DNA from: Alphaproteobacteria bacterium
GTDB lineage: Bacteria; Pseudomonadota; Alphaproteobacteria; UBA828
NCBI GenBank assembly: GCA_963422645.2
Contig: CAXXVO010000002.1
Span: forward strand, 128,001-192,000
DNA length: 64,000 nucleotides
Reading direction: 5' to 3'
Shown in pieces: positions 24,455 to 34,384 of the stretch (position 1 is the stretch's first letter; every line of letters begins with the position of its first letter). The position numbers were made by a program, and so were the translations under genes. Under the pieces are notes generated by a model. That model was given only the letters and a program-made list of their open reading frames with translations, had not been told where the DNA came from and did no database searches.

Positions 24455-24662
24455 AGCATATCCGTTTTAAACGGAACCATATCCGACGTTTCGGATGTAG
24501 TTTTGGCATTCTGCGGGCTCGATGGTGGCGATGAGGTGCCCGAGGTGGCGCCAAGTGTCCTCGAAGTCGCGCCTCTGCGCGTTGCGCATCCAGTGCTTGA
24601 TCTTGGCGAAGGCCTGCTCGATGGGGTTGAGGTCGGGTGAGTAGGGTGGCAGGAACCAGAGG
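24453..24662 (-). mobile_element. IS630-family right-end remnant inserted at the edd stop (CTAG)
   Basis: LWFLPPYSPDLNPIEQAFAKIKH...GYGSV*; IR TAGAGCATATCCGTTT. Confidence 0.8.
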
Positions 24663-24811
24663 CAGTCTCCGGTGCTGCGGATCGCCACCTTGGCGCTGCG
24701 CCCTTCGGCGAGGTGCCGGTCGATGAAGGGCACTGCGACGTTGAAGACGTTGGCGAAGGTCAGCGCGGTCGGCGTCTGTGCGGCATCAACCGCGACGGTG
24801 TGATCGTCCAT
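24663..24811 (-). pseudogene. Benzoate-CoA ligase-like 5' fragment fused to the IS630 remnant
   Basis: FANVFNVAVPFIDRHLAEGRSAKVAI resembles aryl-CoA ligase N-termini. Confidence 0.6.
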
Positions 24812-24988: not shown

Positions 24989-25026
24989 ATGGTGACGTGG
25001 GATTACATCGTCGTGGGCGCGGGGAC
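24989..25026 (+). pseudogene. GMC oxidoreductase 5' stub
   Basis: AGGAGG RBS + MVTWDYIVVGAGT, cut by the MITE end at 25027. Confidence 0.55.
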
Positions 25027-25126
25027 TGTTGATCGGCGCACGGGTTCGGTGCCGATCGGCGCGGTAACCCATTGATCTGGCTGGATTACGGGGGGTCAAC
25101 AAAGCGTGCTCTTGAGTAACAGATGC

Positions 25127-26545
25127 CTAAGCGATTGACGGCATTGGGTTCTGTTTTTCCTCTCCTTGCGTTTTCGGGATGAGTTGGAACCCGAGCTTTT
25201 GGGCTTGGCGGTCGAGATGAGCGAACTTTCTGTTGAGGCGCCGCTTCTCGTAGGCGCCGATGCCCTGCTCGACGTATTCCTGGCCCTCGGTCACCATGAG
25301 GTAGATCAGACAGGCGAGTTCGCGGGCGGTCGCCTTGATCGCGACGGGGGTGTCCATTCGGGCGAGCCTTGCGCGGTGCTTGGCGCCGATGAAGGTCTGG
25401 CTGCGGCGCGCGGCCATGGCCGCCAAGCGCAGGGCCTGTCCGACGGGGTTGACCGCCTTCGGCGACTTGCCGGGGAGATTCTTGCCGCCGCTGATCCTGG
25501 TTCCCGGCGCGAGCGCAAGCCAGGAGCAGAAGTGCTGAGCGGAGGGGAAGGCGGAGAAGTCCGGGCCGATCTCCGAGGCGATCACCAGTGCGGTACCGGG
25601 ACCGACGGTGGGGATCGCGGTGAGGTCGACGCCCATCATCTTGCGCAACGCCAGGGGCTGGATGCCCTCCTTGCCGGTGTCGTTGGTTGCGGCGTTCGCG
25701 GAGCGGCCCGACGCGGTGTCCGAGGTCGTGCCGGGGGCAGGGTCCGGTGCACCGCCCTCCGGGGGATCGTCCGGCGGTGTCAGGCGCTCGACCTCGGCCA
25801 TCACCCGGGCCTCGCAGTCGTCGATCTGCCGGGTCAGGAAGTCGTAGCGCTGCATGGCCTGTTCGAGGGCGAAGAGATGCTCCTCGCGCCACGTCCCCTG
25901 AAGGCTCGCGGCGATCGTATCGGCGTCGGCCTTGATGCCCCGGTGGCGGAGCGTCGCCAGGCGCTCCGGGTCACGCTCGCCGTCGACGATCGCGCGCAGG
26001 ATGCGCTGGCCGGTCAGTCCCGTGATGTTGGCGATCACCGAGTCGAGCCTGACGTTCATCTCGGTCAGCGCCTTTTGCATGTGCAGGACGCAGCGGGAGC
26101 GGTCCTCGGTCAGCCGCCTCATCTGGCGGGCGTAGGAGCGCAGCGGGCAAACCTCGTCGCCCGGACGGAACGCTCCCCGCAGCAGACCGTAGGACATCAG
26201 CTGCCAGATCCACTGGCAGTCCAGCACGTCGCTCTTGCGCCCGCCGATCTGCTTCGTCATGCGCGGCGGCACCAGCATCACCTCGAAGCCCGCGCGCTCC
26301 AGCGTCTCGTAGACCGGGATCCAGTAGACCGAGGTCGACTCCATTGCGACCTTCGTCACCCCGCACGACGCCAGCCACGCCGCCATCGCCGCCAGATCGC
26401 GGGTAAAGGAGCCGAACGAACGCACCGGCTCATCGCTGCGTTCCGCCTCGACCGCCACGAAGTGCCGGTCCTTGCCGATGTCGATCCCTGCGCAGTCAGG
26501 GTTCACCACCCTGAGGCGACGGGTTCTTCGAGACTTGCGCGCCAT
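25127..26545 (-). CDS. IS110 DEDD recombinase/transposase
   Basis: AGIDIGK, AMESTSVYW, RKSDVLDC, LAPGTRISGG. Confidence 0.93.
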   Translation of the reverse strand: MARKSRRTRRLRVVNPDCAGIDIGKDRHFVAVEAERSDEPVRSFGSFTRDLAAMAAWLASCGVTKVAMESTSVYWIPVYETLERAGFEVMLVPPRMTKQIGGRKSDVLDCQWIWQLMSYGLLRGAFRPGDEVCPLRSYARQMRRLTEDRSRCVLHMQKALTEMNVRLDSVIANITGLTGQRILRAIVDGERDPERLATLRHRGIKADADTIAASLQGTWREEHLFALEQAMQRYDFLTRQIDDCEARVMAEVERLTPPDDPPEGGAPDPAPGTTSDTASGRSANAATNDTGKEGIQPLALRKMMGVDLTAIPTVGPGTALVIASEIGPDFSAFPSAQHFCSWLALAPGTRISGGKNLPGKSPKAVNPVGQALRLAAMAARRSQTFIGAKHRARLARMDTPVAIKATARELACLIYLMVTEGQEYVEQGIGAYEKRRLNRKFAHLDRQAQKLGFQLIPKTQGEEKQNPMPSIA

Positions 26546-26589
26546 GGAACATCCTCCCGCCTTTCATCTCCGTCGCGAGCGGGGAGGAA

Positions 26590-26780
26590 CCATGGTCGAA
26601 GTCCCATTCTCTTGAACGAGGTCGCGGGAAACCCGCGCCATCAGTGACCGGAGCCGACAAAATGGTTCGGGCCAAGCTTAACAGCGGGTGCCGCTACAGC
26701 ACGCCAGTGCACGAACGGCCTCTTCACCCCACCCGCCGCCAGTTCACGACCGAGGCGTCGCAGACACAAGCCCCCGTTAC
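26590..26780 (-). ncRNA. Putative bridge RNA of the IS110 element (limits approximate)
   Basis: Two stem-enclosed loops carrying guides that match the target flanks (26676-26683, 26698-26704) and the element end (26609-26615). Confidence 0.7.
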
Positions 26781-26826
26781 TCCCGCGACCGAGCCGGAGC
26801 GCCGCGCCGGTGGAAGCTTAACAACA

Positions 26827-27552: not shown

Positions 27553-28603
27553 ACCGCTTATGCACATGGCTCCGGTCGCGAGAGTTTGCCACCAGATGTT
27601 GAGGTTGAGGTTAGGGCGGGAGAACGGGTAGAATGTTGCCTATACGTTCCTGCCGACGGAGCCACCACATGAAACAGGTCGCCGACAGCCTCCTCGCCTT
27701 CCAGCACATGTTCCCGGACGATGACGCCTGCGCCGCCTGGCTGATCGAAATGCGCTGGCCGGACGGCTTCGTCTGTCCCGCGTGCGGCCATGAAAAGGGA
27801 TGGGCGCTGCGCAGAAAAGCACACACCTTCGAGTGCGCCGGCTGCCGCCGGCAGACCTCGGTGACGGCCGGGACGATCCTGCACGCCAGCAAGCTGCCGC
27901 TCACCGTCTGGTTCTGGGCCGCCTACCTGATGGCGACCCACTCCAACGGCATCTCTGCCCTGCAGCTCCAGAAACAGCTCGGTATCGGCTCTTACCGCAG
28001 CGCTTGGCTGCTCGCCCACAAGCTGCGCGCCAGCATGGTCGACCCCGAGCGCAACCCGTTGTCGGGCCTGGTGGAAATCGACGAGGCCAGCCTTCCATTC
28101 CGGACCAAAGACGATCCTCCCACCGGAGGGCAAGGACGCAGCCACGACGGCAAGATGCTCATCGTCGGCGCCATCGAACTGGGGGATGGAACCATCCCGG
28201 GCCGCCTGCGGCTGGCCGAAATCTCCTCCTACGGCGCCGCCGACCTCGGACACTTCGTCGAAACCGCCGCCGATCCCGACGCCATCGCGAAAACCGACGG
28301 CTGGTCCGGCTACGCTGCGGTCCCCGCCGATCGCCACAATGTCCATGTCGTCGGGAAGACCGCCGCTCACCTCGTCCTGCCGTGGATCCACCAAGTCTTC
28401 TCCAACCTCAAAGGATGGGCGCGAGGCGTCTACCACGGGCTGCGCCGCAAGCATCTGCAGGCCTATCTCGATGAGTTCGCCTTTCGCTTCAACCGCCGCA
28501 AAACCCGCCACGCTGCTTTCCGCTCGCTCTTCCGCATCGCCACCAATGCAAAACCCCTTACCTACAGCATGTTGATCGAACCGGAGCCATGTGCATAAGC
28601 GGT
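27553..28603 (+). mobile_element. IS1595 family element (1051 bp)
   Basis: 24-bp IR ACCGCTTATGCACATGGCTCCGGT; 8-bp TSD TCGAGATA. Confidence 0.93.
27669..28598 (+). CDS. IS1595 transposase
   Basis: RWPDGFVCPAC, VEIDE, KTDG, YLDEFAFRFNRR. Confidence 0.93.
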   Translation: MKQVADSLLAFQHMFPDDDACAAWLIEMRWPDGFVCPACGHEKGWALRRKAHTFECAGCRRQTSVTAGTILHASKLPLTVWFWAAYLMATHSNGISALQLQKQLGIGSYRSAWLLAHKLRASMVDPERNPLSGLVEIDEASLPFRTKDDPPTGGQGRSHDGKMLIVGAIELGDGTIPGRLRLAEISSYGAADLGHFVETAADPDAIAKTDGWSGYAAVPADRHNVHVVGKTAAHLVLPWIHQVFSNLKGWARGVYHGLRRKHLQAYLDEFAFRFNRRKTRHAAFRSLFRIATNAKPLTYSMLIEPEPCA

Positions 28604-31833: not shown

Positions 31834-32035
31834 TGTCAATCGGCTTTCAATACTGACCCCCGATCGGCGTGCAAAATTGACCCCCCTGAGTGGCACGGCG
31901 GAGGTTGTCCCGGTAGCCAATAGGGGGGACCCGCGCGGCTTCGTGTGGCGCCCTGCGCTACGCGGAGCGAAGCCGCGTGGGGGGTCCCTGTTGGCCCACC
32001 GGGGCAACCGGGCCGCAAGGGAGGCCGGCGGCGGG

Positions 32036-32764
32036 TCAGGAGCGGTTCTTGAAGCGCCAGCTCTCGTTGCCGGTCTCGATGATCTCGCAATGATGGGTGA
32101 GGCGATCGAGCAGCGCTGTGGTCATCTTGGGGTCGCCGAAGACGGATGGCCATTCGCCGAAGGCGAGGTTTGTGGTGATGACGATCGAGGTGCGCTCGTA
32201 GAGCCGGCTCATCAGATGGAAGAGCAGCTGCCCACCGGCCTGGGCGAAGGGCAGGTAGCCGAGCTCGTCGAGGATGACGAAGTCGCGGCGGACGAGCTGG
32301 TCTGCAGTGCGGCCCTGGCGTCCGGCGCGAAGCTCGGCCTCGAGGAGGTTGACCAGGTCGACGACGTTGTAGCACCGGCCGCGCGCGCCCTTGCGGATGC
32401 AGGACCGCGCGATGGCGACGGCGAGATGGGTCTTGCCGGTACCGGTGCCGCCGACCAGCACGATGTTGCGTTTGCCCTCGAGGAAGCCGCCGCCGGCGAG
32501 CTCCTGGATCAGGGGCTCGTTGACCGGCGAGGCGGCGAAGTCGAAGTCGGCCAGCTCCTTGACCGTCGGCAGCTTGGCGGAGGCCATCTGGTACTTGATC
32601 GAGCGGGCCCTCTTGTCGGCGATCTCGACCTGCAGCAGCGTACCGATGATCTGTTGCACCGGATGGCGGCGCTTGAGCCCGTCGGCAAGGATGTCGTCGT
32701 AAGCGGCGCGCATACCTGCGAGCTTCAGCTGGGTCATCATCTCCAGCACATCATGACGCTCCAT
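32036..32764 (-). CDS. istB: IS21 helper ATPase IstB
   Basis: [26 protein letters not shown]. Confidence 0.95.
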
Positions 32765-34265
32765 GACCGGCCTCCCTCAGGCTGTCGTAGCGCTGACAGT
32801 CGGCTACCGGCTTGTGGCGAAGCTGCAGGCCCTCGGGCGTCGGGATGATTGCCGGCGGTGCCGGCTGGCGCTGCCGGGCGAGGATGTTGAGCACCACGTC
32901 GGCGCTGCAGGCACCGCAGTCGAGCGTCTCGGCACAGGCCGCCTCAACCGCCTCCAGTCCGTCCTCCAGCACCGCCGCGAGCACCTTGACGAACTGCCGG
33001 TCGCCGTCGTCGTGGCCCGCGAGCCGGGTTCGCAGGCGGCCGAGCGCGTTGGGCAACTGCCAGTCCTTGAAGGGCGCGCCATTGCGTAGCGCGCCGGGCT
33101 TCCGCGTCAGGATCGGCACGTAATGCCACGGATCGTAGACGAACCGGCCGCGCCCGAAGCTGCGGGGGTGCTCGGCAACGGTCTCGCCGTCCTGGCGGAT
33201 GACGATCCGATCGGCATAGGCCCGCACGTCCACCGGCCGGCCGACGGCGCGGGCCGCGACGCTGTACTGGTTGTTGTCGAAGCGCACCAGACAGGTCTTC
33301 GAGACCGACACCTCGCTGGCATGGAAGCCGTCGAAGGGGCCGCGATACGCCATCAGGAAGGGCTGCTCCTCCTCGAACACCTGCCACACCGTCTTGCCCG
33401 GGATTGTCGGATGCGGATGCTTCTTGGCGTCCTCGATGCACCGATCCATCAGCCACTCGTTGATCTCGGCGTAGGAGCGGCCCCGCGGGATGGGCACGAA
33501 CAGGCGGCCGCGAAGGTCACCCACCTGCTTCTCGACCTGCCCCTTCTCCCAGCCAGCCCCTGGCGTGCACGCCACAGGCTCCACCAGATGGTGCGAGCAC
33601 AGCTCCTGGAAGCGGCGGTTGTAGTCCCGCTTCTTGCCCACGAAGATCGTGCTCACCGCCGTCTTCATGTTGTCGTAGATGCCCCGCCGGCAGACCCCGC
33701 CGAAGAAGCGGAAGGCACGCTCGTGCGCCTCGAAGACCATCTCCTGGCTCTCGCGGGGAAAGATCTGGACCAGATACATCCGGCTGTGGCACAGCCGCAT
33801 GTGCGCCGCCTTCACCCTGGTCGTCGCGCCCGACAGACGCGCGTACTCGTGGCTCCAGTCGAACTGGTAGGCCTCGCCGGGATCGAAGATCAGCGGCACA
33901 TAGGCCTGCGCCGGCGACAACAGCCGCCACCGGCGCCGCCAGGCCCTGGCATAGCGGCGAACCGCGTCATAGCCGCCCTTGTAGCCCAGCGACACAAGGT
34001 CTTCATGAATCCGCAGAAGAGACAGCCGATCCTTGCGTGCCTTCTTCTCGTTGGCCTTCAGCTGGCGCTCAAGCTCCTCCACCCACAGCCCAAGCTTCGG
34101 CATCGGCTGGATCTTGCGCTCGTAGCTGTGCGAGGTCGCATCGCCCCGCACCACCTTGCGTATCGTGTTCTTGGAAACCCTCAAATCCCGGGCGAGCTTC
34201 TTGATCGGAACGCCCTTCACCAGATGATCCCGACGGATCTTCGCGATCGTTTCCACAACCAGCAT
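32751..34265 (-). CDS. istA: IS21 transposase IstA
   Basis: [20 protein letters not shown]. Confidence 0.95.
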
Positions 34266-34384
34266 CTCCCCCACCACCCCGTCCGTCCAAACGACGAGGT
34301 GTGTTCATGGACACAAATCCAAGGGGGTCAATTTTGGACGCCGATCACCCCCAATAGGGGGTCACTTTTCCACGCTTAACAACA

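Follow-up and report, generated by a model that had tools for sequence, protein, structure and literature searches.

The window analyzed here is a 64,000-nt stretch of the genome of an alphaproteobacterium of GTDB lineage UBA828 (assembly GCA_963422645.2, contig CAXXVO010000002.1, positions 128,001 to 192,000), and it contains on its minus strand a member of the IS110 family of insertion sequences (IS). Comparison with its copies and relatives makes it very probable that this element is an IS110-family IS that encodes a bridge RNA in its left end (LE), carries the guide segments mapped below and targets the termini of IS21-family elements. A preliminary description of the locus had proposed a two-loop bridge RNA upstream of the transposase gene with guides that match the insertion site and the element's own ends. 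We find that this is a genuine bridge-RNA element and an ordinary addition to a known RNA-guided system, and that the RNA had in part been drawn incorrectly. In the following, G000 denotes the genome to which the window belongs, C numbers its contigs, L numbers individual loci, and other G numbers the genomes of relatives.

Organization of the element

The element extends from 25111, the terminus of its right end (RE), to 26816, the terminus of LE, between two CT cores; these boundaries rest on the junctions as read, on additional copies and on an empty site on contig C21, and the period including one core is 1708 nt. Its gene (25127..26545, minus strand) encodes a 472-aa transposase/recombinase with a DEDD RuvC-like domain at residues 19-163 (PF01548, E = 1e-21) and a Tnp domain (Transposase_20) at residues 308-383 (PF02371, E = 5.5e-12). 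The protein scores 260 bits against the NCBIfam model NF033542 ('IS110 family RNA-guided transposase'), for which the cut-off is 140, and residues D22, E69, D106 and D109 are invariant in seven relatives. Its length results from a low-complexity linker separating the two Pfam domains together with a C-terminal tail, and is just above the range of 315-450 aa given by Siddiquee et al. 2024 (PMC11187229). LE comprises the 270 nt upstream of the gene and RE only the 16 nt past the stop codon. We map the bridge RNA to the left non-coding end (26546..26816, minus strand), with the transposase strand as sense, on the basis of a conserved two-loop structure and conserved G-U pairs.

Consistent with membership in the IS110 family, CT is present at both junctions (25109..25110 at RE and 26817..26818 at LE), the orientation is the same at all sites, terminal inverted repeats are lacking and an empty site exists. 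The trinucleotide GCT does occur at 25108-25110 and 26816-26818, and had been taken as the core. At six RE junctions of a relative in genome G034, the transposase strand reads AG followed by T, C, C, G, A and C, respectively, and because only AG is constant, the shared core is AG on the transposase strand (CT on the other) rather than GCT.

Insertion sites in the host genome

Three full copies of the element are present in G000, of which those in the window and on C18 are identical over 1705 nt and that on C5 is 99.5% identical and carries a frameshift. There are in addition a truncated copy (97%, C8), a 200-nt fragment (96%, C18) and a 77% relative (C8). The right flank of all copies, read on the window plus strand, is TAACAACA. 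The left flank is GCGTGCT at the window and truncated copies and CCACGCT at the C18 and C5 copies. The empty site rebuilt in the preliminary description, GGGGTCAACAAAGCGTGCTTAACAACA, proved to be real, as it is found uninterrupted at position 52111 of C21.

The sequence GCTTAACAACA occurs 83 times in G000, and 70 of these occurrences are the end of one abundant element of ~2.5 kb, which belongs to the IS21 family because domain identification indicates that it encodes IstA-like and IstB proteins. Read from outside, the IS21-type terminus is TGTTGTTAAG followed by CGTGGAAAAGTGACCCCC, and the IS110 element lies 10 bp inside this terminus, always in the same orientation. In the window, the insertion has separated the 10 outermost bp of the left terminus (26817..26826; transposase-strand sequence TGTTGTTAAG) from the rest, and the corresponding 11-mer is that which ends the 70 IS21-family copies; what is left of the terminus on the inner side (25020..25110) is a remnant not followed by IS21 genes. 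The element thus inserts into other ISs, its cognate target being TGTTGTTA-AG-CACG at the extreme tip of the IS21-family left terminal repeat. Our search of the literature, limited to a listing of papers, yielded no report of targeting at the outer 10 bp of IS21-family left termini.

The window also holds a complete IS21-family element on the minus strand (31835-34384; IstA 32751-34277, IstB 32036-32764), one of the ~70 copies that carry the half-site TGTTGTTAAG in the left terminus, all unoccupied in G000. A third IS110-family element, with a 393-aa frame and a long downstream non-coding end, is found at L031 (C18:203078-204061) and at five other places in the genome. It sits between GACCCC..ATT and GGAGATGCC, slightly deeper in the same IS21 left terminus, so that two different IS110-family elements use one IS21 end, and on C18 it lies directly beside a copy of the element studied here.

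Structure of the bridge RNA

The structure supported by our alignment of 27 sequences has 29 pairs; 96.4% of its 770 cells are paired, as compared with 39-43% when partners are slid, and 12 pairs change on both sides. On four of five measures none of 500 shuffles matched the structure, and 25 of 500 did so on the fifth, further pair types. RNAalifold, without guidance, predicts the same helices. Together with the protein domains, these results uphold the assignment of an IS110 element with a two-loop bridge RNA upstream of its transposase.

The target-binding loop (26670..26720, minus strand) has a basal stem formed by 26716-26720 with 26670-26674 and an inner stem formed by 26699-26706 with 26685-26691, these two helices being paired in 88% and 99% of cells. 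From its 5' side the loop reads GAGGCCG, six variable bases, CAN and the helix UGG-N-GUGC/GCACCCG, after which a spacer of 1-2 bases leads to a 7-nt word with AG at its end, two further bases and UGGCC. The donor-binding module (26587..26668, minus strand) has a basal stem of 26662-26668 with 26587-26593 and an inner stem of 26632-26639 with 26620-26628; its helices 3 and 5 are each paired in 99.5% of cells, with 5 and 4 pairs, respectively, that change on both sides. Searches of Rfam returned no matching family and only two chance matches below thresholds. Folding of the 270-nt end as a single sequence, which had been proposed as a check, gave no signal (z = 0.91; 167 of 200 shuffles fold as well).

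These helices are strand-symmetric and a promoter was located on neither strand, and both points are compatible with a guide RNA read from the window plus strand, antisense to the transposase. In the alignment, 26 of 27 sequences have a U-G pair at columns 23:44, all 27 have one at columns 86:113, and 20 of 27 have a G-U pair at columns 13:55. At all three positions they would turn into C-A on the other strand, and we therefore assign the RNA to the transposase strand. Characterized IS110 and IS1111 elements likewise have an RNA co-directional with the transposase, according to PMC11208160 and PMC11187229, and we consider an antisense guide RNA extremely improbable.

The preliminary description had drawn a different anatomy, with an enclosing stem GUUCGUGC/GCCCGAAC and guides GCGUGCU and GUUAAGC around a hairpin AGCGG-CAC-CCGCU. 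The strings on which it was built are all in place on the window plus strand: GTTCGGGC at 26665-26672, GCACGAAC at 26709-26716, GCTTAACA at 26676-26683, AGCGG-GTG-CCGCT, and AGCACGC at 26698-26704. In this copy the proposed stem pairs at seven of eight positions, and all 7 nt of GCGUGCU are complementary to the flank. Across the relatives, however, the proposed stem and hairpin are paired in 56.7% of cells against 55.6% in shuffled controls, a value reached by 96 of 500 shuffles, and the covariation test is negative. The strand GCCCGAAC is divided between two other helices that do covary, and GCACGAAC, taken as a stem, contains the six variable bases that form the true second target guide (26710-26715). 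GCGUGC is conserved in lineages whose flanks differ, AGCACGC corresponds to the 5' strand of the helix UGG-N-GUGC/GCACCCG and is conserved in all 27 aligned sequences, and two of the three full copies in G000 lack the GCGTGCT flank. The fit of AGCACGC to the flank is a coincidence of this type of site, and we attach next to no probability to this anatomy as a whole.

Guide segments and their DNA partners

The principal guide is UGUUAAG, on the 3' strand of the target loop (26677..26683, minus strand), which comprises 5 nt plus the core AG and is identical to the flank adjoining LE, so that it would pair with the bottom strand. Among the 28 lineages with enough upstream sequence, the corresponding 7-nt word equals the 7 nt outside the element's own LE in 23, representing 17 different words, while only 1 of 448 cross-controls matched. 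The five misses comprise a tandem neighbour, a one-base mismatch and three cases left unresolved. The interval GCTTAACA had been named as a target guide and does hold this 7-nt word, so that the covariation of guides with flanks predicted earlier is present here and fails for AGCACGC, which is conserved where flanks differ.

The second target guide is UUCGUG on the 5' strand (26710..26715, minus strand), which is followed by a conserved CAC (26707-26709) and whose CGUG is complementary to the CACG beside the core on the RE side. When wobble pairs are allowed, at least three contiguous pairs from the core are found at 15 of 45 sites compared with 62 of 893 cross-controls (Fisher p = 6e-7), and without wobble the figures are 6 of 44 and 21 of 873. 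One natural case of reprogramming by a single base is apparent, as the window copy has CGUG at a CACG site and a 95% relative in G033 has CGCG at a CGCG site. The C18 and C5 copies, with flank CGTGGA, are predicted to pair all six guide bases with three wobbles. The occurrence of other copies at unrelated sites had been put forward as an outcome that would speak against guidance. All copies share the LE-side half-site, and the half that differs could still wobble-pair with the 6-nt guide. The differing flank CCACGCT of two copies was considered as a refutation of guidance, and this was set aside because the true 6-nt guide could pair with it through wobbles.

The donor guide is UCAAGAG (26609..26615, minus strand), identical to the last 5 nt of RE plus the core AG. 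Its plus-strand form, CTCTTGA, is present at 26609-26615 and at 25109-25115 as originally reported, and the match to RE is confirmed by covariation, since eight variants of the word match the RE ends of their own elements, with one mismatch in one lineage (G040). A further donor match had been proposed for CCATCAG, but this lies within an invariant segment. Thus two of the four matches originally proposed, GCTTAACA with the target and CTCTTGA with RE, are substantiated by covariation, and the other two, AGCACGC and CCATCAG, are not.

An additional feature links the two ends. The loop of the 5' hairpin of LE, GAGUAAC (26776..26782, minus strand), is the reverse complement of the subterminal GTTACTC of RE (25114..25120, transposase strand), and this inverted repeat of 6-7 nt covaries across clades in the forms AGTAAC/GTTACT, GGAACAT/ATGTTCC, CAAACAT/ATGTTTG and GAAACA/TGTTTC. 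The element has no other inverted repeat; the right arm of this one is 3-4 bp away from the core, and the left arm is ~34 nt inside. The loop may represent a third contact between RNA and donor rather than an inverted repeat read by the protein.

Relatives and evidence for mobility

Close relatives were found in 7 of 44 genomes of the taxonomic family, including G000, the other six all belonging to the same genus, and a scan of species-representative genomes returned 78 loci with 52-94% protein identity. The clade spans 52-100% protein identity and is represented in alpha-, gamma- and delta-proteobacterial records. The flank adjoining LE is constant within a lineage, and that adjoining RE varies. 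One genome of the same genus contains at least 37 copies of a relative with 94% identity, many in tandem with a period of 1707, and in G043 the right junction leads into another copy in 13 of 26 cases. Several copies lie inside the guide-coding DNA of other copies (L040, L065 and L102 in G043, and L041 in G040), in the order …CCCGATGTTAAG, element, …TGGTCCGAACC. The RE-LE junction occurs in chromosomal tandem arrays and in one RNA-library contig, in which 26815 is joined to 25108, and in such sequence a circle and a tandem are indistinguishable.

These data bear on whether the protein itself recognizes the IS21 terminal repeat, the RNA matches being by-products of descent. This possibility accords with the IS21-type termini found at all sites of the lineage studied here, which have additional conserved bases (GGGGTCAA) close by. 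It is contradicted by relatives that carry other words and are inserted at unrelated sites, each matching the word of its own element (17 words, 1 of 448 cross-matches), and by the insertions into guide-coding DNA of other copies, which offer no IS21 end. We consider recognition by the protein highly unlikely, and guidance by the bridge RNA remains our preferred explanation.

Several observations weigh against RNA guidance as set out above. None of the 70 IS21 ends in G000 that carry the LE-side half-site is occupied. Scans of LE and of the natural tandem RE-LE junction revealed nothing promoter-like. Contigs from four metatranscriptome studies span the whole element in relatives (90-97% alike), but these may derive from DNA, and RNA-library contigs in general show neither transcription nor strand, ends or circle. 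Since the lineages are related, counts of lineages overstate independence. The RE-side guide shows little or no match in the whole lineages G034 and G040; at 7 G034 sites it matches 0-1 base when wobble is excluded, and a single G034 site reaches 3 when it is allowed. We therefore regard the RE-side target arm as being read loosely. Finally, a guide for the LE terminus, the fourth expected, was not found over all alignment columns, 14 positions and 22 lineages, the search matching only invariant G+C-rich columns.

The element is probably still mobile. That it might be a structurally intact relic no longer moving in G000 is suggested by the presence of only three full copies, one of them frameshifted, and by the 70 half-matching IS21 ends and two fully matching sites that are still empty. 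Two copies are nevertheless identical over 1705 nt in different contexts, and another genome of the genus carries the relative with 94% identity in at least 37 copies; inactivity is accordingly an unlikely, if reasonable, alternative.

Comparison with characterized systems

Durrant et al. 2024 (PMC11208160) describe IS621 as an element whose left end becomes joined to the left target; its target loop carries the LE-side flank guide on the 5' strand. The same text indicates several similarities to the element studied here: DEDD and Tnp domains, an RNA in a long LE upstream of the gene, a target loop that precedes the donor loop, a CT core, and one long and one short guide per target with core bases within each guide. 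The proteins are only remotely alike (E = 5e-6 and 28.7 bits by phmmer to PDB 8wt6). Unlike in IS621, the LE-side flank guide of our element is on the 3' strand of the target loop, which confirms the reversed guide polarity noted in the preliminary description and means that the gene cargo is reversed with respect to IS621 in the frame of RNA-DNA pairing. Furthermore, its donor module is not a simple internal loop, and the element yielded no LE-terminus guide. Relative to the narrow IS110 group (IS621/ISEc21 type), the element shares the long upstream non-coding end and short RE, and lacks the arrangement in which the bottom-strand-pairing guide is 5' and the top-strand-pairing guide 3' in the loop. 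Among the other IS110 families of G000 we sought a control of the IS621 type, but the two examined did not have that layout, one having ~340 nt of upstream and ~170 nt of downstream non-coding sequence and the other a long downstream end.

The reversal of guide order is real and has already been published for seekRNAs of the IS1111 type, for which Siddiquee et al. 2024 (PMC11187229) place the top-strand complement on the 5' side and the bottom-strand complement after it, opposite to the IS110 type; examples are ISEc11, ISPa11, ISKpn4 and IS4321. For IS4321 on plasmid R751 we find that AAAACGGA precedes TATTTTC, the same guide order as in our element. The same paper describes IS1111-type elements as having the RNA downstream of the gene, proteins of ~340 aa and subterminal inverted repeats of 11-13 bp located 7 and 3 bp from the ends. 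Our element resembles this type in guide order and in targeting terminal repeats of other mobile elements, and differs in that the RNA is upstream (with only 16 nt downstream of the gene), the protein has 472 aa and a single inverted repeat of 6-7 bp is present, whose left arm is ~34 nt inside. BLASTP similarity to the IS4321 protein is weak (37.7 and 33.5 bits), and as both relationships are remote, with 28.7 bits by phmmer to IS621 and 37.7 and 33.5 bits by BLASTP to IS4321, the protein is not placeable nearer to one than to the other. The unusual part is thus the combination of an IS1111-like guide order with an upstream RNA gene, an IS110-like layout, without subterminal repeats of the IS1111 type.

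A closer counterpart may be ISPpu10 of Pseudomonas putida, for which a recent preprint (bioRxiv 10.64898/2026.03.19.712850) gives a target consensus, on the other strand, of GTAGG-AG-CGGGTT, with a tolerant 6-position guide that accepts wobble and a strict 5-position guide around a CT core. The layout of its site is that of the Pseudomonas clade members L136 and L138, and the strict 5-nt and tolerant 6-nt guides that we infer for our element are alike in kind; the Pseudomonas relatives examined are 52-55% identical to the 472-aa protein. Judged from target and guide lengths alone, ISPpu10 is probably a characterized member of this clade. According to the preprint it targets repetitive extragenic palindromic (REP) elements, unlike our element, which targets IS21 ends. 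Natural targets inside other mobile elements are also known for ISEc21, an IS110-type element that targets IS3-family transposase genes (PMC11187229), and for IS4321/IS5075, which target terminal repeats of the Tn21 family (a reference cited in PMC11208160), and in this respect all of these resemble the element studied here.

Proposed mechanism and implications

In our reading, the 270-nt LE encodes, on the transposase strand, a bridge RNA in which the target-binding loop precedes the donor-binding module. Comparison shows that UGUUAAG, on the 3' strand of the target loop, repeats the 5 nt and AG core outside LE, that UCAAGAG, from the 3' strand of the donor module, repeats the final 5 nt of RE and the core, and that UUCGUG, on the 5' strand of the target loop, complements the bases beside the core on the other side and is read loosely. 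By analogy with IS621 and ISPpu10, a complex of recombinase and RNA would pair the guide strands with opposite strands of the target and of a circular RE-LE donor, with strand exchange at the CT core. The LE-side half-site dominates recognition and remains intact after insertion. The left junction of a resident copy would accordingly stay a target, which probably gives rise to tandem arrays, and as the guide repeats its own target half-site, the guide-coding DNA would itself be a target, which probably gives rise to self-insertions.

It is possible, though we hold it to be doubtful, that the clade constitutes a third bridge-RNA layout linking IS110 and IS1111, with the RNA upstream as in IS621, the RNA-plus-gene cargo turned round in the frame of RNA-DNA pairing, so that the RNA would read DNA as IS1111 RNAs do, and GAGUAAC as a third donor contact.

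To our knowledge, bridge RNAs and seekRNAs are the only RNA guides that program a recombinase for both DNA partners, and natural variants of these RNAs reveal which of their rules are fixed. With 17 target words, 8 donor words and their matched sites, the clade provides a compact natural data set. It shows that most of the specificity can reside in one half-site of 5 nt plus core, and that guide order is not tied to the position of the RNA gene. It also shows that, where a guide repeats its target, the RNA gene and the left junction of the element themselves become targets, which would explain the tandem arrays and self-insertions. For the host, the effect is disruption of the left terminus of IS21-family elements, of which G000 has ~70 copies. 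The accepted mechanism is unchanged by these findings.

Additional mobile elements

The surroundings of the element are a patchwork of mobile elements, including an IS630-type DDE fragment to the left (24467-24811) and an IS1595-family transposase gene to the right (27633-28598). The IS110 transposase model has 70 matches in all in G000. A second IS110-family element of ~1768 bp encodes a 421-aa protein and is present in 48 copies (for example L010-L014 at C11:47796-57962). Several of the copies are arranged in head-to-tail arrays of up to five units with a period of 1768-1769, and the flanks of this element suggest a very short target, approximately ACA followed by AA. The 200-nt fragment of the element studied here (L006, C18:55926-56125) is interrupted where the donor guide starts, with CCTCGTT on one side of the cut and CAAGAG on the other (window 26615/26616), and contigs from two RNA-library studies (X17, X20) break at this same cut point with the same foreign sequence.

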